This document shows positions 2,405-56,350 of a stretch of 64,000 bases of DNA, piece after piece. Numbering within the stretch: the stretch's first letter is position 1; each line of letters begins with the position of its first letter. Source of the DNA: Escherichia coli (GTDB lineage Bacteria > Pseudomonadota > Gammaproteobacteria > Enterobacterales > Enterobacteriaceae); NCBI RefSeq assembly GCF_001677475.2, contig NZ_CP015229.1. One strand, written 5' to 3'. Position numbers and translations under genes: made by a program. The notes under the pieces are model-generated. The model had not been told where the DNA came from, did no database searches, and saw only the letters and a list, made by a program, of their open reading frames with translations.

Positions 2405-3748
2405 ATGAGTTGGAATAACCGGGTGGTCTGGAGTGAAGGACAATTTTTGTTGCCACAGATGTTTCAGCAGCAGGAACGCTATCTGGAACATGTCATTCAT
2501 TATCGCAGTTTGCCTCTTTCACCTTTTTACTGGGGTTTCAATGAGTATGGTATTGGTAGTGAGGCGCTGAACATCGGAAAACTGGTACTTACGAAGGCTT
2601 CCGGGGTATTTGCTGACGGTACACCTTTTAATGCGCCGGGTCATACACCACTCCCGCCGCCGCTGACCATCCTTCCAGAACATCTTAACCAGTTGATTTA
2701 TCTGGCTGTGCCAATACGTACGCCGAACAGTGAAGAAACCAGTTTCGACAATAACCCTGAATCACTGGCACGTTTTTCGGTACATGAAAGTGAAATCCGT
2801 GATGCCAATTCGCTGGGGCGAGGCGCGCAACTGCTGCAACTTAGCCACCTGCGCTTGCGACTGTTACCGGAAAAGGCGGTGACAGACGCGTGGATCGGCC
2901 TGCCGCTGACGCGCATCACGGCGCTGCATCCCGATGGTCGGGTCGATATAGACAAAGAGTTGATCCCGCCAGTGGCGAACTACCAGGCCAGTACGCTGAT
3001 ATGTACCTGGCTGTCGTGGATTAACGATCTGATAAAAATGCGTGCAGATTCGCTGGCGGAACGATTGACGGGGAGCGACAAACACGGTCATGAAGCGGCG
3101 GAAGTGTCGGATTACCTGCTTCTGCAAGTTCTTAATCGTTTCGGCCCCTTATTGATCCATATGTCGAAAACGCCGCTATCGCCTGAAGTACTTTATCGTA
3201 ACCTCTGCGCACTGGCCGGAGAACTCTCTACCTACGTGCGTCCGCAAACACGTCGTCCGGAAGAATATAAAGAATATAAGCACCTGACGCCCTATGCCGG
3301 GCTGAAATCGGTGGTGGACGAGGTTCAGTATCTACTGAATGCTGTGCTAATACGTGGGGCGCAGCGAATCCCTCTGGAAGAGGGAACTTACGGTATTCTC
3401 AATGCGGTGGTTGAACCTACCGAACTGTCAGATTTCAGCTCGTTAGTATTGGCGGTGAAGGCACAGATGTCCGCCGACACCTTACTACAACATTTTTCGG
3501 CTCAGACCAAAATAGGGCCGTCAGAACGCCTGCCGGAACTGATTCGCTCGCACCTTCCTGGTCTTGTTCTACAGGTGCTGCCAGTGCCACCGCGTCAGAT
3601 CCCGTTCCAGTCCGGTTACATCTATTACGACATCCGCCGCGACGGCGTGTTGTGGGAACATATCGCCCGCTATGGTGGCATGGCAATGCATACCGCCGGA
3701 GAGTTTCCAGGGCTGGAGCTGGAGCTGTGGGGAGTTCGCGATAAATGA
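2405..3748 (+). CDS. tssK: T6SS baseplate protein TssK
   Basis: 447 aa; N-terminus W..GQFLLPQMFQQQERYLEH typical of TssK; order tssJ-tssK-tssL. Confidence 0.85.
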   Translation: MSWNNRVVWSEGQFLLPQMFQQQERYLEHVIHYRSLPLSPFYWGFNEYGIGSEALNIGKLVLTKASGVFADGTPFNAPGHTPLPPPLTILPEHLNQLIYLAVPIRTPNSEETSFDNNPESLARFSVHESEIRDANSLGRGAQLLQLSHLRLRLLPEKAVTDAWIGLPLTRITALHPDGRVDIDKELIPPVANYQASTLICTWLSWINDLIKMRADSLAERLTGSDKHGHEAAEVSDYLLLQVLNRFGPLLIHMSKTPLSPEVLYRNLCALAGELSTYVRPQTRRPEEYKEYKHLTPYAGLKSVVDEVQYLLNAVLIRGAQRIPLEEGTYGILNAVVEPTELSDFSSLVLAVKAQMSADTLLQHFSAQTKIGPSERLPELIRSHLPGLVLQVLPVPPRQIPFQSGYIYYDIRRDGVLWEHIARYGGMAMHTAGEFPGLELELWGVRDK

Positions 3749-4464
3749 CCGACGATATTCTGACGCAACCTGCGGTGAATACCCTGCAATTACAGCCTTC
3801 AATGAGGGGAACAAGGTCGCCTGATAATGACGGTTACGATACGCTCGTCCAGGACAGCCTTCGCAGGGAAGATATAAAGGTGGTGGTTGAAGACGGGCCA
3901 GATTTGAAGCTCCGCTTGGCTGAGATCACTGCTGCTGTGAATCCTCTTCTGGCGGCGGCCAGCCCTCTGTTATGCGCGCTGGCGCAAATGCCCCGTGAAC
4001 TTTCCCCTGGTTTTGTCGAACATTATCGCGCCCTACTGGAGCGTGAAGTCCGCCGGTATCAGACGCTGTGCGACCAGGCAAACCTGCGCCGCGAACATGT
4101 GCTGGCGGTACGTTACTGCGTGTGCACGGCGCTGGATGAAGCTGCCAACAACACCGTCTGGGGGCGACGCGGTGTCTGGGCCGGGAAGAGCCTGCTGGTG
4201 ACTTTTCATGGCGAAAGTGAAGGCGGCATCAAGCTGTTTCAGATAATCGGGCGTCTGGCCGCCAGCTTCCAGGAGCACAGCGATGTACTGGAAATCATTT
4301 ACCACATTCTGGGACTGGGTTTTGAAGGCCGCTACAGTGTACGGCCTGACGGGCGTAAACAACTGGACGATATCCGCCAGCAACTGCTGACTCAACTGGT
4401 CCAGCGTCGCGATCCGATCACGCCGACGCTCTTGCCGGGTTTTGCCGGTGCCGTCAGTGGGTGA
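3745..4464 (+). CDS. tssL: T6SS membrane-complex protein TssL (DotU-like), cytoplasmic domain; ends at in-frame TGA
   Basis: 239 aa, position after tssK; no TM helix in this ORF; next ORF is in the same frame. Confidence 0.75.
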   Translation: MTDDILTQPAVNTLQLQPSMRGTRSPDNDGYDTLVQDSLRREDIKVVVEDGPDLKLRLAEITAAVNPLLAAASPLLCALAQMPRELSPGFVEHYRALLEREVRRYQTLCDQANLRREHVLAVRYCVCTALDEAANNTVWGRRGVWAGKSLLVTFHGESEGGIKLFQIIGRLAASFQEHSDVLEIIYHILGLGFEGRYSVRPDGRKQLDDIRQQLLTQLVQRRDPITPTLLPGFAGAVSG

Positions 4465-5061
4465 ATGCGGCGGATGCGCCGGGTGCCGGTCTGGCTGAGC
4501 GCCGGAATCGCCCTGCTGGTGATGCTGACGCTGTTTGGCCTTTACAGCCACCGGATGAACCTCGCCACCGAAACCGTACAACAGCGTATCGACGCCATTG
4601 GTAAAAATCTTCCGCCGCCACCCGTTCCGGTGCATAAACTGCGGTTGAAAATCCTGCTGGCGAACGAAATCGCCCGTGGCCTGCTGACGGTGGAGGAAGA
4701 TGACCATCACAGCCGTGTAATCTTTCGTGGCGATACGATGTTTATACCGGGGCAGAAAACCGTGAATGATGCGCTGCGCCCGGTGATTGACAAGGCCGCG
4801 CGTGAGATTGCGCGTGTGGGGGGCGCGGTGACGGTGACCGGCCACACGGACAGCCAGCCGATCCACTCCGCTGAATTCCCGTCCAACCAGGTATTGTCGG
4901 AAAAACGTGCGGCAGAAGTAGCTTCGCTGCTGACATCTGGTGGCGTTCCGGCTAGCCGAATTCGGGGTGTCGGTAAAGGGGATACTATGCCGGTGGCTGA
5001 TAATAGTACTAAAACTGGACGAGCGCAGAATCGCCGGGTGGAAATTCTGGTGGTGGAGTGA
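4465..5061 (+). CDS. TM-anchored OmpA/MotB-like peptidoglycan-binding domain protein (TssL C-terminal part / TagL-like)
   Basis: N-terminal TM helix (VPVWLSAGIALLVMLTLFGL) then OmpA-like C-terminus (...VTGHTDSQP...RAQNRRVEILVVE); same frame as tssL. Confidence 0.8.
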   Translation: MRRMRRVPVWLSAGIALLVMLTLFGLYSHRMNLATETVQQRIDAIGKNLPPPPVPVHKLRLKILLANEIARGLLTVEEDDHHSRVIFRGDTMFIPGQKTVNDALRPVIDKAAREIARVGGAVTVTGHTDSQPIHSAEFPSNQVLSEKRAAEVASLLTSGGVPASRIRGVGKGDTMPVADNSTKTGRAQNRRVEILVVE

Positions 5062-22598: not shown

Positions 22599-23072
22599 AT
22601 GGGCAGGATAAGCTCGGGAGGAATGATGTTTAAGGCAATAACGACAGTCGCCGCACTGGTCATCGCCACCAGTGCAATGGCACAGGATGATTTAACCATT
22701 AGCAGCCTTGCAAAGGGCGAAACCACCAAATCTGCATTTAATCAGATGGTGCAAGGGCATAAGCTGCCAGCCTGGGTGATGAAAGGCGGTACTTATACCC
22801 CTGCACAAACCGTGACATTGGGAGATGAGACGTATCAGGTGATGAGCGCGTGCAAACCGCATGACTGTGGCTCGCAACGTATCGCTGTGATGTGGTCCGA
22901 GAAATCTAATCAGATGACGGGGCTGTTCTCGACTATTGATGAGAAAACGTCGCAAGAGAAACTCACCTGGCTGAATGTGAACGATGCGCTTTCGATTGAT
23001 GGTAAAACGGTGCTGTTCGCGGCGTTGACCGGCAGCCTGGAAAACCATCCGGATGGCTTTAATTTTAAATAA
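22599..23072 (+). CDS. ivy: Inhibitor of vertebrate lysozyme Ivy
   Basis: 157 aa, signal peptide, CKPHDC motif; matches E. coli Ivy. Confidence 0.9.
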   Translation: MGRISSGGMMFKAITTVAALVIATSAMAQDDLTISSLAKGETTKSAFNQMVQGHKLPAWVMKGGTYTPAQTVTLGDETYQVMSACKPHDCGSQRIAVMWSEKSNQMTGLFSTIDEKTSQEKLTWLNVNDALSIDGKTVLFAALTGSLENHPDGFNFK

Positions 23073-26382: not shown

Positions 26383-26440
26383 TTTCTCCCTCTCCCTTTC
26401 AGGGAGAGGGCCGGGGTGAGGGTAACAGCCTGCACCTTTT
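26383..26440. repeat. Half copy (inverse orientation) of GC-rich palindromic intergenic repeat; likely gmhA terminator hairpin
   Basis: CCCTCTCCC-TTTCA-GGGAGAGGG next to GGGGTGAGGG; same motifs as the copies at 46.6, 54.0 and 56.3 kb. Confidence 0.4.
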
Positions 26441-26498: not shown

Positions 26499-27266
26499 AT
26501 GTGCGAATTGCTCGGGATGAGCGCCAACGTCCCTACCGATATCTGCTTTAGTTTCACCGGGCTTGTACAGCGTGGTGGTGGAACCGGGCCACATAAAGAT
26601 GGCTGGGGCATCACCTTTTACGAAGGTAAAGGCTGTCGCACATTTAAAGATCCACAACCCAGCTTTAATTCCCCCATCGCCAAACTTGTCCAGGACTACC
26701 CGATAAAATCCTGTTCGGTGGTGGCTCATATTCGCCAGGCGAATCGGGGCGAGGTGGCGCTGGAAAATACTCACCCATTTACCCGCGAGTTATGGGGGCG
26801 TAACTGGACTTATGCCCATAACGGACAACTGACGGGCTACAAATCACTGGAAACCGGCAACTTCCGCCCGGTCGGTGAAACCGACAGCGAAAAAGCCTTC
26901 TGCTGGCTCCTGCATAAATTAACGCAGCGTTACCCGCGTACGCCGGGCAATATGGCGGCAGTGTTTAAATATATCGCCTCACTGGCGGATGAACTGCGGC
27001 AGAAGGGCGTTTTCAACATGCTGCTTTCTGACGGGCGCTATGTAATGGCGTATTGCTCGACTAATTTACACTGGATCACCCGCCGCGCGCCGTTTGGCGT
27101 GGCAACGTTGCTGGATCAGGATGTGGAAATCGACTTCAGCTCGCAGACCACACCGAATGATGTGGTCACGGTGATTGCGACACAGCCGCTGACGGGCAAT
27201 GAAACCTGGCAAAAGATTATGCCAGGCGAATGGCGCTTATTTTGCCTCGGGGAGCGTGTAGTTTGA
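26499..27266 (+). CDS. yafJ: Class II glutamine amidotransferase YafJ
   Basis: N-terminal MCELLGMSA (Cys2 nucleophile); matches E. coli YafJ. Confidence 0.85.
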
Positions 27267-27977
27267 TGCCAGCTGTGGCTGCACAACTTCGTGGCTTAAC
27301 GGCTTGCTGACCACGTAACGACCATTGACCACAGAAACGGTCGGTGGCTTACGGGTTTGCTCAAAGTAGTCGTAACCTGGCTTCAGCTGCTCCCAGAAGT
27401 CCTTAAAGTTGGAATATTTATGGCGCTTCATATTGGCGTCGGTCATGCGGAACGGGTAAATACTCACTTGCACGCTCGGCTGACCAAACACCAGCGCACC
27501 AGTAACGAACTGGAAGATCTCATCAATACCCTGATTGGTCATCGCGTAGCAGCCGATGGAAACACAATCGCCGTGGATCATCAGATATTTCCCTTCATAA
27601 CCATGCGCACGGTCATAAGCATTGGGGAATCCAATATTAATCGCTTTGTAGTAACGGCTGTCTGGTTTTAACTGATTACGCTGGACGCTATAAAACCCTT
27701 CCGGGCTTTTGAAATCGCCCTGACGCTGTTTTGGCCCTAAGCCGCCGGAATATTTACAGATTTTATAGCTGTCGAGCAGTTGATATTGCTCGCCCATTTT
27801 GACGTAGAGATCGAGCGTACGTTCTTCCTTGAAGATCTGGATGTAGACAGGGGATCCCATCAACTGCTGCTTATACTCTTTGCTCACTGGCGTGGTCGAG
27901 CTACTGCTGCCCAGCAAACCGGCAAACGAAACGCACGGGATCAACAACATCGCAAGAATTAATGCGATTTTACGCAT
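27237..27977 (-). CDS. yafK: YkuD-family L,D-transpeptidase-like protein YafK
   Basis: Signal peptide plus conserved YafK sequence. Confidence 0.85.
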
Positions 27978-28705: not shown

Positions 28706-28883
28706 GCTTGAATTGTAGCTCAAATGAGCAACAGCGACAATCCATGAGTAATTTAATAAACGGATGTTTTTACATAATTAACTGAAATATATTTATTAAT
28801 TTTATAATAATGGTTTATTAAGTTTGTTCAGGTACGGGCCGGGATACACTGCAACATCAATGCATGACCAGCCATTATTGAGA

Positions 28884-29633
28884 ATGTCTTTGCCGTCGAT
28901 TCCCTCTTTTGTGTTGTCGGGATTATTGTTGCTTTGCTTGCCGTTTTCTTCATTTGCCAGCGCCACCACATCACATATCTCTTTCAGCTACGCCGCCCGC
29001 CAGCGGATGCAAAACCGTGCGCGTTTATTAAAACAGTACCAAACCCATCTGAAAAAACAGGCCAGCTATATTGTGGAAGGCAATGCCGAAAGCAGAAAGG
29101 CGCTGCGCCAGCACAACCGCGAACAGATAAAACAGCATCCAGAATGGTTTCCTGCGCCGCTCAAGGCGAGTGACAGACGCTGGCAGGCGCTGGCGGAGAA
29201 CAACCATTTCTTAAGCAGCGACCATCTACACAACATCACCGAAGTGGCGATTCACCGCCTGGAGCAGCAGCTTGGTAAGCCTTACGTCTGGGGCGGTACG
29301 CGGCCCGATCAAGGCTTCGACTGTAGCGGGTTGGTTTTTTATGCCTACAACAAGATCCTCGAGGCGAAGCTCCCGCGTACGGCCAATGAGATGTATCACT
29401 ACCATCGGGCAACGATTGTGGCGAATAACGACCTGCGCCGGGGAGATTTGCTGTTTTTCCATATTCACAGCCGTGAGATTGCCGATCATATGGGCGTGTA
29501 TCTGGGAGACGGGCAATTTATCGAATCGCCACGCACCGGGGAAACCATACGGGTAAGCCGGTTAGCCGAACCTTTCTGGCAGGATCATTTTTTGGGCGCG
29601 CGACGGATTTTGACGGAAGAGACGATTTTGTAG
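28884..29633 (+). CDS. yafL: NlpC/P60-family lipoprotein YafL
   Basis: Signal peptide; NlpC/P60 core ...GFDCSGLVFYAY...; matches YafL. Confidence 0.8.
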   Translation: MSLPSIPSFVLSGLLLLCLPFSSFASATTSHISFSYAARQRMQNRARLLKQYQTHLKKQASYIVEGNAESRKALRQHNREQIKQHPEWFPAPLKASDRRWQALAENNHFLSSDHLHNITEVAIHRLEQQLGKPYVWGGTRPDQGFDCSGLVFYAYNKILEAKLPRTANEMYHYHRATIVANNDLRRGDLLFFHIHSREIADHMGVYLGDGQFIESPRTGETIRVSRLAEPFWQDHFLGARRILTEETIL

Positions 29634-29809: not shown

Positions 29810-30304
29810 ATGTCTGAATATCGTCGTTATTACATCAAGGGGGGAACATGGTTTTTCACGGTAAATTTACTGAATCGTCGAAGCCAGCTTTTGACCACCC
29901 AGTACCAGACGCTCCGTAACGCCATTGTTAAAGTTAAGCGAGCCAGACCTTTTGAAATTAACGCCTGGGTAGTTTTGCCGGAGCATATGCACTGTATCTG
30001 GACATTACCCGAAAGCGATGATGATTTTTCCTCTCGCTGGCGGGAGATTAAAAAGCAATTTACCCATGCTTGTGGATTGAAAAATATCTGGCAACCGCGT
30101 TTTTGGGAGCACGCCATCCGCAATACGAAAGATTATCGCCATCATATTGATTATATTTATATAAATCCAGTAAAGCATGGTTGGGTAAAGCAGGTGAGTG
30201 ATTGGCCATTCTCAACGTTCCATCGCGATGTCGCGCAAGGGTTATATCCCATCGATTGGGCGGGAGACGTAACGGATTTTAGTGCCGGGGAGCGTATCAT
30301 TTTA

Positions 30305-30307
<3 letters not shown>
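29810..30307 (+). CDS. rayT: REP-associated tyrosine transposase RayT
   Basis: 165 aa matching RayT/YafM; flanked by REP elements. Confidence 0.88.
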
Positions 30308-43162: not shown

Positions 43163-43597
43163 ATGCGACAAATCATCGACACCCTCGCGCAGTTACAGCG
43201 CCTGCGGGATAAATCGGTCAAGGACAAAACCGTCGAGCTGGCAAAACAGAAACAGATTTGCGCGGGCTATGACAACAATATCAAAGCATTAGGTTACCTG
43301 GTGGAGAAAACCTCTGCGGGCGCGGCGGCATCGGTGGAATCGCTGAAAAACGTCAGCGGCTACAAAGGCACCCTGCGCAAGGTGATCGCCTGGCAAGAGC
43401 AGGAAAAAACGCTGGCTAACATCAAAGCCACGCGAATGCAGAAAAACCTGACGGCGGCGGCCTGCGAAGAGAAAGTGGTGGCTTTGACGCTGGACGACAA
43501 ACGCCGCGAGCAACAAGAAAGCGCCACGGCGAAAGCGCAGAAAGCGGTGGACGATATCGCCGTGCAGTGCTGGTTGCGGCACAAATTAGCGGAGTAG
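43163..43597 (+). CDS. lfiJ: Flag-2 export chaperone LfiJ (FliJ homologue)
   Basis: 144-aa coiled-coil protein immediately after the ATPase gene. Confidence 0.7.
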   Translation: MRQIIDTLAQLQRLRDKSVKDKTVELAKQKQICAGYDNNIKALGYLVEKTSAGAAASVESLKNVSGYKGTLRKVIAWQEQEKTLANIKATRMQKNLTAAACEEKVVALTLDDKRREQQESATAKAQKAVDDIAVQCWLRHKLAE

Positions 43598-43599
43598 CC

Positions 43600-43995
43600 A
43601 TGAAAACGGTCATCACCTTCGGCACCTTCGATGTGTTTCATGTCGGTCATCTGCGCCTTTTACAACGCGCCCGCGCATTGGGCGAGCGGCTGCTGGTCGG
43701 CGTGTCGTCAGACGCCCTGAACATCGCCAAAAAGGGCAGAGCGCCGGTTTACCATCAGGATGAACGCATGGCGATTATCGCCGGGCTGGCGTGTGTGGAT
43801 GGCGTATTTCTTGAGGAATCGCTGGAGCAAAAAGCAGAGTATTTGCGGGGGTACAGTGCGGATATTTTGGTGATGGGTGATGACTGGGCAGGGAAGTTTG
43901 ACAGCTTTGCGTATATTTGTGAGGTGGTGTATTTCCCCCGCACGCCATCGGTGTCGACGACGGGGATTATTGATGTGATTAGGGCGCTTTTATAA
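43600..43995 (+). CDS. Cytidylyltransferase (glycerol-3-phosphate cytidylyltransferase TagD-like)
   Basis: N-terminal TFGTFDVFHVGH (HxGH nucleotidyltransferase motif); about 131 aa; RBS GGAG. Confidence 0.7.
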   Translation: MKTVITFGTFDVFHVGHLRLLQRARALGERLLVGVSSDALNIAKKGRAPVYHQDERMAIIAGLACVDGVFLEESLEQKAEYLRGYSADILVMGDDWAGKFDSFAYICEVVYFPRTPSVSTTGIIDVIRALL

Positions 43996-44004
43996 AGTGC
44001 TAAC

Positions 44005-44100
44005 ACCCAGATGTTTGTTTCTTGCCGGATGCGGCGTAAACGCCTTATCCAGCCTACAAGACGTGATCGATCCGTAGGCCTGATAAGCGAAGCGCATCAG
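44005..44100. repeat. REP pair
   Basis: GCCGGATGCGGCGTAAACGCCTTATCC and CGTAGGCCTGATAAGCGAAGCGCATCAGGCAC. Confidence 0.5.
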
Positions 44101-44113
44101 GCACTTCTGTGGT

Positions 44114-46558
44114 TTACCCCAACGCCTCCACAATCACCATTGCCGCCCGTTCCCCCGCCTTGCCATCCATAAACGCGTCGCAATAGTGATGGCGAATCTC
44201 CGCCAGCTTCGCCTGCAACGCCTTCCAGTCAAACGCCTCTGACAGCAGATAACGCAGTTCCGCCATATCGTGAGCGACGGGTAATATCGCGCGGATTCGC
44301 TGATCGGCGCTTTCAGGCGTGGAGTAGCTTTGCTCGCCATCGAGCAGTTCCGTCATGCCCGAAAAGTCGAGCAGGATCACCCGCTTATCAACGTGGATAG
44401 CATCGAAAATAAAGCCGCTGTTATCGGTGAGCACGTAATCGGCCTTTGCCAGTAGCGCCAGCGTGTGACGGGCGGAGTCGGTGCGCTGTTTTAAATGTCT
44501 GCGCGCCAGGGCCAGCGACGCCGCTTCTTCCGGGCGCGCGCAGGTGCCGTGGTGCAGTTTGCAAATCAGGTTCACATCACCGCTTAAGCGCCCCAATTTT
44601 TCTGCCCAGTGGGGCAGGGAGCTTAATGTGCCAAACGTGGGGGCGTAGAGCACCGTAGTTTTACGAAAATCGGGTTGGATATTTTCCGGCAACGAACGAT
44701 CGAAAGTGCCGTTATGCCAGGTGTCGAAGCGCGGGTTGCCAACCACTTTTGCATTGCCGAAATGTTCCAGCGCCTGCTGGCTGTAGTGGCTGTAACACAA
44801 AATGCGCTGATAAAAACGGTTCCAGTCGGCATGGTTCCACGTCTCTTTGGCTAAGCCGTACATGGCGCGGATGTTCACGGGGGAAAGGCCATTGAGCGCA
44901 GGCGTGTGGTAGGGGCTGACCAGGCATTTCACCCGCTGACCGTGTGCCTGCATTTCAGATAAGCGCATACCTTTAAGCTGCGGATCGACGATACTTTTTA
45001 GCGTCGCCAGCATTTCATCAAGAAACGGTTTAAACACGCGGTCGTTGATCACCAGCGTGCAACTCTGCCCCTGCGCCTGTAGGGATGTGATGATGGGGCG
45101 GTACAGCGCGTAGTGAAAGGAGGTTTCCATAAAAAAGCCGATGGTGTCGGCGATGGGTAACGCGGATGGCGTTGTGGCTACGGGCAATTTATTGAAAAAG
45201 TGACTAATATTATCAGTCACTTTTTGCTCGATATCACTAAAGCCCGGTCGCTGGTAACAAAGGCTCGGATAACAGGCCAGCCATTTGTCGGCGCGTAGCA
45301 GCGACTGCCAACACTCTTCAAGTGAGTGCTCATCGTTGCTCATCTGCTGCGCCAGTTGCGGGTAGTAGCGGCTGTTCACCAGATAAGCGCACACTTTGCG
45401 GCAGTCCCGCGCGTGCACCAGCCCCGGCAAACTTTTTAGCATCGTTCCCTGCGAAATTTCGCCGCCAAGGATCATCACCTGCCAGGGAATTTTCGCCAGG
45501 CTGGCCAGCAGAGTGTTCAGCACCTGAATATGTTTCTCCTGCTTGAGAATGACCGCGTCATCTTCCAGTAAAAGGTAGTTTTGCCAGCCCTGCCGTTGCG
45601 CCAGGCGCAGCGCCTGCAAGTGTGACTGCTGGCGGCCCCGTTGACCGTTTTCATCTTCGCAGGCGGCAAGGCGGGTGATCTTCTCAGGCGGAATATGCAG
45701 CAAAGCCAGTTCTTCACGGATCTGTTGTAAGCGATCCGGGCGTTTATCCAGATTCAGCAGAACGATCTGATCGATCACCTGATGGTTGATCGCCTGATGA
45801 TGAGTGGCGTTATGCAGACTCAGATAAGCATTGCGGAGCAGCGGATCGCGGACGATATCCGTAAGCGTCGCGTTTACTGGCGTGCTGGCCCCGAGAATAA
45901 AGTCTTTATCAAAGGTGTTGTGGCTGTGCGAGATACACAGAATCGTGCGCTCACCGGGCAGTTGTAGCGGGTTAACGCTGAAGTTATCGGTGAAACTTTT
46001 CTCTTCACCTAAATTGCAATCGTCATCGTAGCGGTGCTTTTTCAGGTAGTTACGGTGATAGCAAAAGGTGCCGTTGAGGATGTTATGCGAGCCAAAGCAG
46101 CGGCTTTTGAAAATGCGGTTGATATGGCTGTACCAGATGGGGATCTGGTCGGAACCGGAGATGAGCGCCCGGTGTTTTTGCATCATGGCGATGGTGTACG
46201 AGATTTTATCTGCCGGGTAGTAGTCGTCATCGTCCATGCAGAGGATGTATTCGCCGCGCGCCAGTTCGTTGAGCATATTACGTTTTTTGCCCAGCGGCAG
46301 TTTTTCCGGGTGATGGATGTAGCGGATATTGAAGGACTCCGGCTTGCCATTGGTCAGGCGGTCGATGATGTGTTGATGGCTTTGCGGGGAGTCGTCGAGG
46401 ATGACCAGTTCGCGGCGGTCTGCCGGGTAGTCCTGATAGCGGTACATATAGAGCAGGTACAGCAGGAATGCGCCGCGATTCCAGGTTGGCGTGACGACGC
46501 TGACAAATGGTTTTTCGCGGTGGGTGGCGAGTGTTTTGATGATGGTTGGTGTTGGCAT
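44114..46558 (-). CDS. Large multi-domain glycosyltransferase (GT2-like + GT25-like + CDP-glycerol glycerophosphotransferase-like C-terminus)
   Basis: About 815 aa; N-terminal GT-A region with VVTPTWNR and DDDDYY (DxD); middle LLNLDKRPDRL (GT25-like); C-terminal ...LYAPTFG...KLHHG... reminiscent of TagB/TagF; start uncertain. Confidence 0.65.
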   Translation of the reverse strand: MPTPTIIKTLATHREKPFVSVVTPTWNRGAFLLYLLYMYRYQDYPADRRELVILDDSPQSHQHIIDRLTNGKPESFNIRYIHHPEKLPLGKKRNMLNELARGEYILCMDDDDYYPADKISYTIAMMQKHRALISGSDQIPIWYSHINRIFKSRCFGSHNILNGTFCYHRNYLKKHRYDDDCNLGEEKSFTDNFSVNPLQLPGERTILCISHSHNTFDKDFILGASTPVNATLTDIVRDPLLRNAYLSLHNATHHQAINHQVIDQIVLLNLDKRPDRLQQIREELALLHIPPEKITRLAACEDENGQRGRQQSHLQALRLAQRQGWQNYLLLEDDAVILKQEKHIQVLNTLLASLAKIPWQVMILGGEISQGTMLKSLPGLVHARDCRKVCAYLVNSRYYPQLAQQMSNDEHSLEECWQSLLRADKWLACYPSLCYQRPGFSDIEQKVTDNISHFFNKLPVATTPSALPIADTIGFFMETSFHYALYRPIITSLQAQGQSCTLVINDRVFKPFLDEMLATLKSIVDPQLKGMRLSEMQAHGQRVKCLVSPYHTPALNGLSPVNIRAMYGLAKETWNHADWNRFYQRILCYSHYSQQALEHFGNAKVVGNPRFDTWHNGTFDRSLPENIQPDFRKTTVLYAPTFGTLSSLPHWAEKLGRLSGDVNLICKLHHGTCARPEEAASLALARRHLKQRTDSARHTLALLAKADYVLTDNSGFIFDAIHVDKRVILLDFSGMTELLDGEQSYSTPESADQRIRAILPVAHDMAELRYLLSEAFDWKALQAKLAEIRHHYCDAFMDGKAGERAAMVIVEALG

Positions 46559-46599
46559 GGTGTTTGGGTGAGTTAAGGGGTGAATGTGATGAATGTGCG

Positions 46600-46725
46600 C
46601 GCTGATGCCCTCACCCCGACCCTCTCCCACAGGGAGAGGGAGAGAACCAGCGCCGATTTTAATACCGTGCTCGATCGGTTCCCTCGCCCCTTTGGGGAGA
46701 GGGTTAGGGTGAGGGGCAAAGCGCG
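46600..46725. repeat. GC-rich ~120-bp palindromic intergenic repeat (full copy)
   Basis: GCCCTCACCCCGACCCTCTCCCACAGGGAGAGGG ... GGGGAGAGGGTTAGGGTGAGGGG; near-identical copies at 53.96 and 56.24 kb. Confidence 0.5.
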
Positions 46726-46736
46726 CACAGAGCGAC

Positions 46737-47666
46737 TCACGTCAGCAGCGAAAACGCTGAAAGCAGCGGCTCTGCCGCACATAACGACTGAATTTGCTGG
46801 CGAATAAACAGCGCATTTTCACTGGTCCGCCAGCGTTCAAACATGGCGAAGAGGGCGAAAATATCCTCCTTCCGCAGCGGAGAACCATCCAGCGTCCATA
46901 AACTGATTAACGTGCGGATAAGATAAAAATCGCACACCAGCGGGAAATAATCCGCCCCGTCTGCCTGCCCGATCGCATCGTGGTAAACGCGGTAGATCAG
47001 GTAATTACGCAAAATCCAGGGTGAAGTGGTGAAATGCTGCTGCCAGGTAGTTTGCCACTGCGCCTGAAGCTGCTGATGTAACAGGGCTTCGCTGTTGGCG
47101 TCATGCAATGTCAGTAAAGAAACCTGCAACGGCAGCGAGGCTTTGCGCGGGCTTTCCGGCAGAATCGACCAGTCAAACGCAAAACTTCCGAGCAGCGTCA
47201 CCAGCTGGCGTGCCAGCTGTGGCACAGGTGGCAACTGGGCGAACTGTGCCTGTAGCGTACCTTTTCGCGCATGGTCGGCCAGCGCCTGCGGCAGCGTCGT
47301 CAAACGGGCCAGAGTATCGCCATTCTTGCCCGGCATTTTACTGGCGCGGGAGAGCAGGATACCGACGGCATACAGTGACAATTCCGGGGTTAAATCGGCG
47401 AGCGTAAGGGTGCTCAAAATGACCTGGTTTAATATCACATCGCGTGCGGAAAGCTCACTGGCACTCTCTTCCATAGACCGATAGGTGAGCTGTAATTCAA
47501 ACGCACTGGCGTCGTTGAGCACCGCTTCGCAGCTTTCTGGCTCTGTAAGCATCAGACTCAGGCGAATTTCATTTTTCCATACCTTGCGGACATACAAAGG
47601 CGAACCAGGATGTTGTGCAATAAATTTGCGCACAAATTCAGGTTCGTAACATTCAATAAAACTCAT
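46737..47666 (-). CDS. Hypothetical protein within Flag-2 locus
   Basis: Roughly 310-aa ORF, no recognised motifs; start uncertain. Confidence 0.45.
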   Translation of the reverse strand: MSFIECYEPEFVRKFIAQHPGSPLYVRKVWKNEIRLSLMLTEPESCEAVLNDASAFELQLTYRSMEESASELSARDVILNQVILSTLTLADLTPELSLYAVGILLSRASKMPGKNGDTLARLTTLPQALADHARKGTLQAQFAQLPPVPQLARQLVTLLGSFAFDWSILPESPRKASLPLQVSLLTLHDANSEALLHQQLQAQWQTTWQQHFTTSPWILRNYLIYRVYHDAIGQADGADYFPLVCDFYLIRTLISLWTLDGSPLRKEDIFALFAMFERWRTSENALFIRQQIQSLCAAEPLLSAFSLLT

Positions 47667-47793
47667 AGGAGGCTTCCAGTCTTTAATGCTGAACAGGAAT
47701 TGCAATTACCGTGCCGGAAAATTTTTTAATATAAAACAAAGAATTGTTTTTCAGGCGGAAAATCCATTTCCGCTATGGGGGAAGGAATGGTCA

Positions 47794-53954: not shown

Positions 53955-54085
53955 AATGTGTGGCCTGATGCCCTCACCCCGGCCCTCTCCCACAGGGAGA
54001 GGGAGAAAAGCGGCGCACGATGTAACAACGCGCACAGGTCAGTCCCCTCGCCCCTTCGGGGAGAGGGTTAGGGTGAGGGGGAACA
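53955..54085. repeat. GC-rich ~120-bp palindromic intergenic repeat (full copy)
   Basis: Same element as at 46.6 kb. Confidence 0.5.
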
Positions 54086-54148: not shown

Positions 54149-54814
54149 GTGAAAAATTATCTCTGGCTGGTGGCACTGCTTCCCCTGCTTAGCGGGTGTG
54201 AATCGCAGGCTATTCTGGTCAAAAAAGACGACGCATACTTTGCGCCACCGAAAACCGAAGCGCCGCCTCCGGCAGACGGGCGTGCCGGAGGCGTGTTTGA
54301 AACTGGCTACAACTGGTCGCTCACCGCCGACCGACGAGCTTACCGTGTGGGCGATATCCTGACGGTGATTCTCGAAGAATCGACCCAGTCGAGCAAACAG
54401 GCGAAAACCAACTTTGGCAAAAGCAACAGTGTCGATATCACCGCGCCAACGGTATTCGGTCACACCAAAAATAAGCTTTCCGGTTCCATCGACGCCAACC
54501 GCGACTTTGACGGCAGCGCCACCTCCCAGCAGCAGAATAGCCTGCGCGGGGAGATCACCGTTTCCGTCCATGCGGTGCAGCCCAACGGCATCCTGGAAAT
54601 TCGCGGCGAGAAATGGCTCACCCTCAACCAGGGTGATGAGTACATCCGCTTGAGCGGCCTGGTACGCGCCGATGATATCCAGAACGACAACTCGGTTTCC
54701 TCCCAGCGGATCGCCGATGCCCGCATCTCCTATGCCGGACGCGGCGCGTTAAGCGACGCCAACGCCGCAGGTTGGCTGACGCGGCTGTTTAACCATCCTC
54801 TGTTCCCGATTTAA
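54149..54814 (+). CDS. lfgH: Flag-2 L-ring lipoprotein LfgH (FlgH homologue)
   Basis: Lipobox LLSGC; FlgH-like. Confidence 0.88.
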
Positions 54815-54828
54815 TGCCGGAGAGTGCA

Positions 54829-55929
54829 ATGCAAAACTGGATAAAGACGGTGATGATCGCCGTAAGCCTGGTGCTGCCCGGCGTGGCGCTGGCGCAATCG
54901 CTGGAGTCGCTGGTCAACGTACAGGGCGTGCGTGAAAACCAACTGGTCGGCTATAGCCTGGTGGTCGGCCTTGACGGCACTGGCGATAAAAACCAGGTCA
55001 AATTCACTAACCAGACCATCACCAATATGCTGCGCCAGTTTGGCGTGCAACTGCCGAATAAAATCGACCCGAAGGTGAAAAACGTCGCCGCGGTGGCGGT
55101 GAGCGCCACGCTGCCGCCGATGTACTCGCGCGGGCAAACCATTGACGTCACCGTCTCGTCGATTGGCGATGCCAAAAGTATTCGCGGCGGCACTTTGCTG
55201 CTGACCCAACTGCACGGCGCAGATGGCGAAGTTTATGCCCTGGCGCAGGGTAGCGTGGTGGTCGGCGGGATGAATGCCACCGGGGCCAGCGGCTCAAGCG
55301 TAACGGTTAATACGCCAACCGCCGGGTTAATTCCCAACGGCGCGACGGTGGAGCGCGAGATCCCCAGCGATTTTCAGATGGGCGATACCATCACCCTCAA
55401 CCTGAAACGTCCGTCGTTTAAAGATGCCAACCACATTGCAGCAGCGATCAACGCCTCGTTTGGCGGCATCGCCACCGCGCAGAGTTCCACCAACGTTACC
55501 GTGCGTGCCCCCACCAGCCCCGGCGCGCGGGTGGCGTTTATGTCGCAACTGGATGATGTGCAGGTGCAGGCGGAGAAAATCCGCGCCCGCGTGGTGTTTA
55601 ACTCACGCACCGGCACGGTGGTAATGGGTGACGGTATCGCGTTGCATGCGGCGGCGGTGTCGCACGGCAGTCTTACTGTCTCGATTAACGAAACCAGCAA
55701 CGTCAGCCAGCCGAATGCCTTTGCCGGTGGGCGCACGGCGGTGACGCCGCAGAGCAATATCGCGGTGAATCATGCGCGCCCTGGCGTGGTGAGCTTGCCG
55801 GAGTCGAGCAGCCTGAAAACGCTGGTGAATGCCCTGAACAGTTTAGGCGCAACGCCGGACGACATTATGTCGATTTTGCAGGCGCTGCATGAAGCGGGCG
55901 CGCTGGATGCCGACCTGGAGGTGATCTGA
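54829..55929 (+). CDS. lfgI: Flag-2 P-ring protein LfgI (FlgI homologue)
   Basis: Signal peptide; FlgI-like; RBS GGAGAG before internal ATG. Confidence 0.9.
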
Positions 55930-56228
55930 TGAAAGTGAACGCCAGCGGTGGGATTGACGGCAGCGACGCGTTAATGGGGCCGAAGGTTCAGGCCAATGAT
56001 ATCAAGCAGGCCGCGGAACAGTTCGAGGCGATTTTTTTACGCAACATGTTGAAAGAGATGCGTAAAACCAACGAGTTGTTTGATTCGAAAGATAACCCAT
56101 TTAACAGCGATTCGGTGCGCATGATGCAGGGGTTTTATGACGATGAGTTGTGTAACACCCTGGCGCAGCAGCACGGGATTGGGATTGCGGCGATGATTGT
56201 AAAGCAGTTGTCGCCGAAGGGGAAATGA
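55929..56228 (+). CDS. lfgJ: Flag-2 FlgJ-like rod-binding protein lacking muramidase domain (LfgJ)
   Basis: 99 aa corresponding to the FlgJ N-terminal rod-binding domain only. Confidence 0.65.
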   Translation: MKVNASGGIDGSDALMGPKVQANDIKQAAEQFEAIFLRNMLKEMRKTNELFDSKDNPFNSDSVRMMQGFYDDELCNTLAQQHGIGIAAMIVKQLSPKGK

Positions 56229-56231
56229 GGG

Positions 56232-56350
56232 GAGGTGCACGCTGATGCCCTCACCCCGGCCCTCTCACTAGGAGAGGGAGCAGACTGGTGCCGTATTTAA
56301 CAATGTGCTCGATCGGTCCCCTCTCCCTTGAGGGAGAGGGTTAGGGTGAG
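56232..56350. repeat. GC-rich ~120-bp palindromic intergenic repeat (full copy, diverged centre)
   Basis: GCCCTCACCCCGGCCCTCTCACTAGGAGAGGGAG ... GAGGGAGAGGGTTAGGGTGAGGGGGC. Confidence 0.5.

Follow-up and report, generated by a model that had tools for sequence, protein, structure and literature searches.

The window analysed here, a 64,000-nucleotide stretch of an Escherichia chromosome, carries a type VI secretion cluster (roughly 1-20,600), a group of core genes (yafV, ivy, fadE, lpcA, yafJ, dpaA/yafK, yafL and rayT) and, beyond these, a Flag-2 (lateral-type) flagellar locus which extends from lfhA through lafC (30,519 to the window end). At the DNA level the window is approximately 93-96% identical to E. 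coli Flag-2 loci and approximately 88-94% identical to E. whittamii, and with respect to the former it represents another Escherichia lineage. Some E. coli carry a defective Flag-2 system (PMC6993521); the window's Flag-2 locus is apparently intact.

Within this locus the gene order is lfgH-lfgI-lfgJ-lfgK-lfgL, and the same order was found in all 66 of the related loci described below. The gene under study, lfgJ (55929..56228, forward strand), starts with an ATG at 55929, ends with a TGA at 56226-56228 and comprises 99 codons, as determined from the open reading frame list and by reading of the sequence, in agreement with the coordinates and length given for it in the first-pass annotation. 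Directly upstream lies lfgI (54814..55929, forward strand), encoding the P-ring protein, and downstream lies lfgK (56437..57804, forward strand), encoding hook-associated protein 1. The translation-initiation context of lfgJ (55917..55931, forward strand) was read from the sequence and consists of a GGAGG Shine-Dalgarno core at 55917-55921, seven bases before the ATG, followed by a TGATG in which the lfgI stop and the lfgJ start codon share one base. This one-base overlap and the GGAGG core suggest that translation of lfgJ is coupled to that of the P-ring gene.

The orthologue from E. coli Flag-2 (RefSeq WP_000867281.1) is also 99 aa in length, is likewise located between lfgI and lfgK and differs from LfgJ of the window by few substitutions only (approximately 97% identity). 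As RefSeq/PGAP names this orthologue "rod-binding protein", and as single-domain FlgJ proteins form a well-described class, the feature is already known. The TGATG overlap and the Shine-Dalgarno core, together with the PF10135 match and the TIGR02541 core alignment presented in the following section, indicate that lfgJ is a real gene.

Domain content and predicted structure of LfgJ

Analysis of LfgJ against Pfam returned a single domain, Rod-binding (PF10135), at residues 42-93 (56052..56207, forward strand), with an E-value of 3e-14 and a score of 53.7 bits versus a cut-off of 25.1. The match spans the full 51-position model and lies above the gathering threshold. No PF01832 (GH73 glucosaminidase) was detected in LfgJ by the Pfam search, and a custom GH73 profile was also negative. 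The domain search which the first-pass annotation had proposed, and which found PF10135 alone and no lytic domain, bears out its statement that the protein consists of the rod-binding domain only and has no muramidase domain. When compared with the dual-domain FlgJ equivalog TIGR02541, LfgJ scored 67.9 bits, below the cut-off of 193, and aligned through model positions 20-90 of 294 only. This sub-threshold score and the missing GH73 match place LfgJ, as judged from its sequence, outside the canonical dual-domain FlgJ class, and the combination of a Rod-binding domain above threshold, no lytic domain and a site in the rod/ring operon between flgI and flgK assigns it to the single-domain FlgJ class.

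The top NCBIfam matches of LfgJ were short PRK12708-type models (NF009349, NF009351 and others; 97-140 positions) which bear the name "peptidoglycan hydrolase", with scores below the respective cut-offs (best 87.9 bits versus 141, and 87.5 versus 183). Because models of 97-140 positions are too short for a hydrolase domain, this name is probably a legacy misnomer.

The FlgJ proteins of Salmonella and of the E. coli Flag-1 system (approximately 313-316 aa) combine a Rod-binding domain with a GH73 beta-N-acetylglucosaminidase domain. Their N-terminal rod-binding core is homologous to LfgJ (model positions 20-90), the Flag-1 flgJ gene occupies the same position after flgI, and a role as rod cap is presumed to be common to both. 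In contrast, the linker and the entire GH73 domain of Flag-1 FlgJ are missing from LfgJ. While the first-pass annotation had equated the 99 residues of LfgJ with the length of the FlgJ N-terminal domain, LfgJ is shorter than the N-terminal half of the Salmonella protein (roughly 150 residues) and matches the conserved core of that half only.

An AlphaFold2 model of LfgJ was generated from 52 homologues and is of modest confidence (pLDDT 68). Helices are predicted at residues 22-51, 61-80 and 86-94. The N-terminus (codons 1-21; 55929..55991, forward strand) has no secondary structure in the model and is predicted to be disordered, with pLDDT values below 50 for residues 1-10, and it is poorly conserved, the corresponding alignment columns being variable. 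From what is described for Salmonella FlgJ we infer that this segment would act as a flagellar type III export signal; a Sec-type hydrophobic signal peptide was not evident at the N-terminus. The residues invariant in the LfgJ alignment are F32, E33, M44, R45, D71, G85, Q93 and L94. Neither a sequence search nor a fold search retrieved a solved rod-cap structure resembling LfgJ.

Conservation of the short FlgJ in enterobacterial Flag-2 loci

A word-indexed search with LfgJ gave 104 relatives, with full-length close homologues of approximately 95-109 aa in E. coli, Citrobacter, Scandinavium, Leclercia, Dryocola and Pseudescherichia. Among the nearest relatives in a collection of 1.84 billion representatives, all proteins were short down to approximately 45% identity, and below this level short and long forms were mixed; the first long forms examined came from polar-type loci and had a Rod-binding plus Glucosaminidase architecture.

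Loci were collected by a scan with an alignment of lateral FlgI proteins, using one genome per species, which gave 80 loci. Of these, 66 were Flag-2 loci of enterobacteria which have the diagnostic lafW gene, and lafZ was also present in most of the gene orders printed. Genera represented among the 66 include Escherichia, Pseudocitrobacter, Citrobacter, Phytobacter, Enterobacter, Buttiauxella, Lelliottia, Kluyvera, Cedecea and Yersinia, as well as Rahnella, Serratia, Budvicia, Pragia, Rosenbergiella, Tatumella, Pantoea, Erwinia, Mangrovibacter and Ca. Fukatsuia. A FlgJ of 97-139 aa was encoded directly after lfgI in every one of them (66/66), and Pfam analysis of representatives of this set returned the Rod-binding domain only. 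Variants of 129-139 aa carry a conserved C-terminal tail which ends in GQE.

The dN/dS ratio of lfgJ was 0.078 versus E. coli and 0.045 versus another Escherichia. With respect to Citrobacter, synonymous sites were saturated, but the protein was still approximately 80% identical. These values indicate that lfgJ is under purifying selection. Taken across the 66 loci, the comparison indicates that a FlgJ with the rod-binding domain only is no truncation but ancestral to the entire enterobacterial Flag-2 lineage, in which it has remained stable. The short form is the normal state of the gene across enterobacteria and is already annotated.

The lfgJ-lfgK gap

The intergenic gap between lfgJ and lfgK measures 208 bp (56229..56436) and holds no coding remnant of a lytic domain. 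Translation of the gap gave no open frame across it, with stops in all three forward frames. Custom profiles were used to search the whole 64-kb window in six frames without filtering, one for GH73, built from the C-termini of dual-domain FlgJ proteins, and a narrow one for SLT; no GH73- or SLT-like sequence better than E ~5 was obtained. A motif search of the whole window for the GLMQ...AYNxG motifs of lytic transglycosylases was also negative, and no promoter or terminator was found in a scan of the gap.

The gap is occupied by a dispersed palindromic intergenic repeat (56248..56353) with inverted arms at 56248-56269 and 56331-56352. More copies are located near 53970-54085 in the lfgG-lfgH gap, at 46608-46715 in the gap at approximately 46.6-46.7 kb, and at 26401; five matches were obtained in the search as compared with zero expected. 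In a set of 69 related loci, lfgJ and lfgK are separated by a median of 13 bp, and the longer gap in the Escherichia lineage is due solely to insertion of the palindromic repeat.

The canonical gammaproteobacterial FlgJ is a dual-domain protein (PMC8517470), as is the lateral FlgJ of Plesiomonas, and LfgJ could on that basis be regarded as the stump of such a protein, its muramidase domain having been cut off by a frameshift, a nonsense mutation or a sequencing error. The first-pass annotation had itself allowed for a muramidase domain encoded in frame downstream and missed through a sequencing frameshift, and this is ruled out by the stops in the 208-bp gap and by the negative six-frame profile searches. 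The lfgJ stop codon is moreover kept within a few codons among Escherichia/Citrobacter-type relatives, the short FlgJ and short median gap of the 66 species leave no room for a lytic domain in any locus, and lfgJ evolves with a dN/dS of 0.05-0.08. A frameshifted or truncated dual-domain FlgJ is refuted by the gap stops, the six-frame searches, the conserved short length and the low dN/dS, and we give this reading practically no weight.

Other FlgJ architectures in lateral-type systems

The lateral locus of Plesiomonas shigelloides shares the Flag-2-type gene order (flgB-L, lafA, fliD, fliS and so on; PMC4481668). Its lateral FlgJ, however, is 328 aa in length and carries a C-terminal GH73 glucosaminidase domain which LfgJ does not have. 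Separate dual-domain FlgJ proteins serve the polar and the lateral systems of this organism.

The FlgI scan also recovered 14 lateral-type loci from Pseudomonas/Stutzerimonas. These carry lafW homologues and, where checked, also lafZ or lafK, in common with the enterobacterial system. Unlike LfgJ, their FlgJ proteins (342-396 aa as the open reading frames were called) have the Rod-binding domain fused to an SLT lytic-transglycosylase domain: the SLT profile matched all 14, a Rod-binding plus SLT architecture was returned for all five proteins scanned against Pfam, and the ES, GLMQ and AYNAG catalytic motifs were intact in the three inspected. In a neighbour-joining tree of FlgI with a polar root, calculated without support values and without Vibrio or Aeromonas, Plesiomonas was basal and the Pseudomonas group was sister to one clade which contained all enterobacterial Flag-2 loci. 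The comparison of lateral FlgJ proteins covers the enterobacterial, Plesiomonas and Pseudomonas/Stutzerimonas systems; cluster look-ups for lateral FlgJ of Vibrio or Aeromonas gave Buttiauxella, Tatumella, Enterobacter and Vogesella only.

One flagellar family therefore presents a single FlgJ scaffold in three states, with GH73, with SLT or with no lytic domain. Because lateral-type relatives fuse GH73 or SLT to this scaffold, the comparison suggests a general advantage of lytic activity at the rod tip in the lateral family. It also suggests that a tethered lytic domain was lost from, or never present in, the enterobacterial Flag-2 lineage, which is stable without one.

Search for a wall hydrolase in and around Flag-2

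The open reading frames of the Flag-2 part of the window encode named flagellar or flagellin-modification proteins, or were checked individually by Pfam, NCBIfam or PDB-sequence searches. The modification cargo consists of a cytidylyltransferase, an 838-aa GT2 glycosyltransferase and a 321-aa FliB-like open reading frame. No recognisable peptidoglycan hydrolase was present in the Flag-2 part of the window, as the first-pass annotation had also concluded, and none was found in the PGAP annotation of a complete E. coli Flag-2 locus. The SLT and GH73 profiles matched no open reading frame in the 66 related loci, which were inspected within 10 kb on either side of lfgI. Further hydrolase classes were covered through Pfam analysis of recurrent unknown open reading frames, for which 295 unmatched frames from the 66 loci were clustered and representatives of the 20 most recurrent clusters were scanned. 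No wall hydrolase was identified by Pfam among these 20 representatives, several of which had no match at all; the clusters with matches comprised glycosyltransferases, methyltransferases, an aminotransferase, divergent FlgM- and FliJ-like proteins and similar. A separate lytic enzyme gene of the SltF, BB0259 or PleA type was likewise found neither in the window nor in the related Flag-2 loci inspected.

The first-pass annotation had advised looking for a lytic transglycosylase elsewhere in the locus or genome. None was recognised in the locus, and just outside Flag-2 that annotation had missed yafL, of the NlpC/P60 family (28824-29633), the wall-active dpaA/yafK (27237-27977), and the Tae4 amidase of the type VI secretion cluster. 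Other wall-related genes outside Flag-2 are the lysozyme inhibitor gene ivy and the Rap1a-type immunity gene which accompanies Tae4. Nothing links yafL, dpaA/yafK, ivy or the Tae4 amidase to the lateral rod. Both yafL and dpaA/yafK belong to wall-active families and lie to the left of Flag-2 within approximately 3.3 kb of lfhA, a position from which they might be thought to serve the lateral rod. Against this, they are core E. coli genes which, like ivy, are annotated irrespective of Flag-2, and K-12, which has lost Flag-2 by deletion, carries both. Of 5426 genomes, 5425 matched the flanking region, but only 706 matched at least 80% of a query crossing into Flag-2. As rayT separates yafL from Flag-2, and as yafL is convergent with lfhA, yafL is not part of a Flag-2 operon. 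A role for this pair at the lateral rod is very unlikely.

Two products of the Flag-2 locus had no Pfam match, namely LafW (58765-59742), a conserved protein of no assigned function which is present in every Flag-2 locus examined, and the protein encoded by the 321-aa open reading frame (46737-47705), and either could be proposed as a novel peptidoglycan-lytic enzyme which replaces the missing domain. An AlphaFold2 model of LafW (55 homologues, pLDDT 71), however, matched flagellins and hook-associated proteins when compared with the PDB by Foldseek (E 2e-7 to P. aeruginosa FliC), and LafW is thus predicted to have a flagellin/HAP-like rather than a lysozyme-like fold. LafW also does not track the missing domain and would not compensate for it, since it has homologues also in those Pseudomonas loci in which FlgJ is already fused to SLT. 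The 321-aa open reading frame lies among glycosylation genes and is weakly similar to the flagellin lysine-N-methylase FliB (E 9e-13, below cut-off). We regard a lytic function for either protein as exceedingly improbable.

Discussion

We consider it highly probable that LfgJ is a genuine single-domain FlgJ rod cap without lytic activity, that this is the ancestral state, and that wall opening is encoded outside Flag-2. LfgJ is predicted to be small and helical, with an N-terminus that is disordered. Taking the N-terminal half of the Salmonella protein as a model, it would be exported via the Flag-2 type III apparatus. As proposed from the same model, it would then cap and scaffold the growing rod (LfgB/C/F/G) and would be displaced once the rod is complete, and the opening of the wall for the lateral rod would be supplied by a factor encoded outside the locus. 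The two De Maayer papers on Flag-2 make no mention of FlgJ or peptidoglycan.

As the most likely source of this activity we favour, with modest confidence, housekeeping enzymes of the host periplasm (one or several lytic transglycosylases or endopeptidases), either recruited or simply exploited. A single-domain FlgJ which works with a separate, Sec-exported transglycosylase has been described in Rhodobacter (SltF; PMC7277832) and in Borrelia (BB0259; PMC8517470). Like LfgJ, the FlgJ proteins of the Rhodobacter sphaeroides Fla1 system and of Borrelia burgdorferi are scaffold only, and lysis is performed by a separate protein. The Rhodobacter transglycosylase gene is located in the flgG operon, however, whereas the Flag-2 part of the window and the inspected flanks of the 66 related loci contain no such gene. 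A more specific version of the favoured reading, which we put forward tentatively and hold to be rather doubtful, is that a specific unlinked lytic transglycosylase or endopeptidase of the host is recruited to the rod tip by the minimal LfgJ of 99-139 aa, which would make a tethered domain dispensable. The GQE-ending C-terminal tail of the 129-139-aa variants could in that case be a docking peptide for the host enzyme.

With respect to dedicated lysis, the first-pass annotation had held that a separate peptidoglycan hydrolase must serve rod penetration. This expectation is reasonable in view of the GH73 and SLT fusions of the relatives. It is not a necessity, and "must" overstates the case: in a review which cites Hirano et al. 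2001 (PMC8781033), Salmonella devoid of the muramidase activity of FlgJ is reported still to swim, slowly and after long incubation. The same report would fit a rod assembled with no dedicated lysis at all, in which the thin lateral rod makes use of gaps that already exist or are just forming in the growing peptidoglycan of the sacculus and the cap alone is enough; the stability of the short form across a deep enterobacterial radiation is also consistent with such a rod. In the studied single-domain cases of Rhodobacter and Borrelia, however, a separate enzyme is required (PMC7277832, PMC8517470). The closest non-enterobacterial lateral systems have, moreover, independently kept or acquired GH73 or SLT on FlgJ, and we regard assembly without dedicated lysis as unlikely.

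Most Flag-2 hosts, Escherichia included, also carry Flag-1 with a dual-domain FlgJ. Together with the lack of a lytic gene inside Flag-2, this raises the prospect that the Flag-1 FlgJ glucosaminidase opens the wall for Flag-2 rods in trans, which would have allowed the lateral system to lose its own domain. Budvicia aquatica, Pragia fontium and Tatumella ptyseos, however, are reported to be motile without flag-1 (De Maayer et al., PMC6993521), and the loci of Budvicia, Pragia and T. ptyseos in our set encode the same short, rod-binding-only FlgJ (106, 103 and 124 aa, respectively); B. aquatica DSM 5075 and T. ptyseos ATCC 33301 of the locus set are the strains named in that study. As these Flag-2-only motile genera have a short FlgJ, borrowing from Flag-1 cannot be a general requirement. 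Flag-1 FlgJ is also exported through, and active at, its own rod tip, and Plesiomonas keeps a dual-domain FlgJ in both its polar and its lateral system. We therefore consider borrowing from Flag-1 to be improbable. The probability left beyond the housekeeping enzymes, assembly without lysis and the Flag-1 protein falls to other sources of lysis.

For the window itself these results are of little consequence, the automated annotation of lfgJ being already correct. More widely, the "peptidoglycan hydrolase" names attached to short lateral FlgJ proteins, as by the PRK12708-type models, are likely wrong and could lead metabolic or cell-wall inventories astray. The occurrence of three FlgJ architectures in one family, together with motile genera which have Flag-2 only, offers a tractable route to the wall-opening enzyme of Flag-2 rods. 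Should recruitment of a host enzyme by LfgJ prove true, the presence of no lytic domain, GH73 or SLT on one and the same scaffold would constitute a natural experiment on the coupling of wall lysis to rod assembly.

Domain Architecture of Lateral FlgJ Proteins

FlgJ proteins encoded by lateral-type loci of Pseudomonas and Stutzerimonas were found to carry the rod-binding domain fused to an SLT lytic-transglycosylase domain in all 14 loci (L076-L079 and L081-L090), with the corresponding ORF located at approximately 11,000-12,400 in each. The ES, GLMQ and AYNAG motifs were present in each of the three SLT-fused sequences inspected out of these 14. A lafW homologue was identified in all 14 loci, accompanied by lafZ or lafK where gene order was checked. 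No discussion of this rod-binding and SLT architecture was found in the accessible literature.

In the Plesiomonas shigelloides lateral locus (L009:10001-10987), FlgJ is a 328-aa protein in which the rod-binding domain is joined to a GH73 glucosaminidase domain, a dual-domain arrangement that differs from all 66 other enterobacterial Flag-2 loci. The best matches of this protein beyond its own cluster were longer FlgJ-family proteins from other organisms. Among named relatives, the nearest was a Plesiomonas FlgJ of 322 aa, which agrees with the published length of the polar FlgJ; it is therefore possible from these sequence matches that the domain was captured from the polar gene.

Variation in length was also observed among LfgJ proteins themselves. 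While the Escherichia protein is 99 aa in length (55929-56228, plus strand), alignment of LfgJ variants from related loci (A4) revealed forms of 129-139 aa in Enterobacter, Cedecea, Lelliottia, Kluyvera and others (for example L032:11114-11506, L036:11111-11500 and L073:11111-11503), which bear a C-terminal extension of 30-40 residues with a conserved GQE at its end that is missing from the Escherichia form. With respect to naming, four NCBIfam models (NF009349, NF009351, NF009352 and NF009350) carry the product name "peptidoglycan hydrolase" yet span 97-140 positions, a length which allows coverage of the rod-binding part of FlgJ only. Through these short models, lateral FlgJ proteins probably receive a wrong enzymatic annotation.

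Other Features of the Window and Record Labels

Five occurrences of a GC-rich dispersed palindromic intergenic repeat, whose core is AGGGAGAGGGTTAGGGTGAGGG, were counted in the window versus zero expected, with copies at 56248-56353, 53970-54085, 46608-46715 and 26401-26422; three Flag-2 intergenic gaps contain copies. At 29810-30307 is rayT, which encodes a REP-associated tyrosine transposase. Peptidoglycan-related genes that are not part of Flag-2 are clustered close to it, and encode a Tae4 amidase effector with a Rap1a-type immunity protein (10152-11320), the lysozyme inhibitor Ivy (22599-23072), DpaA/YafK (27237-27977) and YafL (NlpC/P60; 28824-29633).

The long form of the T6SS gene tssL (3745-5061) contains an in-frame TGA at 4462-4464, directly followed by ATG, where E. 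coli A20 has CGG. This stop divides the membrane portion of tssL from its C-terminal portion, leaving it as a pseudogene or as a split gene.

Among the related loci, the record labelled Chryseobacterium sp. 18061 (L024) is probably mislabelled or contaminated, since its Flag-2 locus is typical of enterobacteria and near that of Citrobacter sp. 18056. LfgI from two records labelled Pseudocitrobacter (L011 and L013) was 98-99% identical to the Escherichia form.

LafW, Its Neighbouring ORF and a Putative Flagellin-Modification Region

Every Flag-2 locus examined carries a conserved LafW (58765-59742 in the window), as do the lateral-type loci of Pseudomonas. Pfam and NCBIfam searches with LafW returned no match; its AF2 model (pLDDT 71), disordered at the N-terminus, resembled flagellins and hook-associated proteins. 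Between lafW and lafZ, 50 of 66 enterobacterial Flag-2 loci (among L016-L075) contain a minus-strand ORF of approximately 150-200 aa at about 15,000-15,600 (e.g., L060:15028-15624; L005:13732-14199), which had no Pfam match and was not present in the window or in the E. coli locus examined. In L005, the sole locus with coordinates checked, this ORF overlaps the end of lafZ. Its product is a possible partner of LafZ, a ToxR-like regulator.

The variable region from lfiJ to lfgN (43567-47705) encodes a cytidylyltransferase, a GT2 glycosyltransferase of 838 aa whose C-terminus gave a weak glycerophosphotransferase-like match, and a 321-aa distant FliB-like protein. The gene content of this region suggests that the lateral flagellin is modified.
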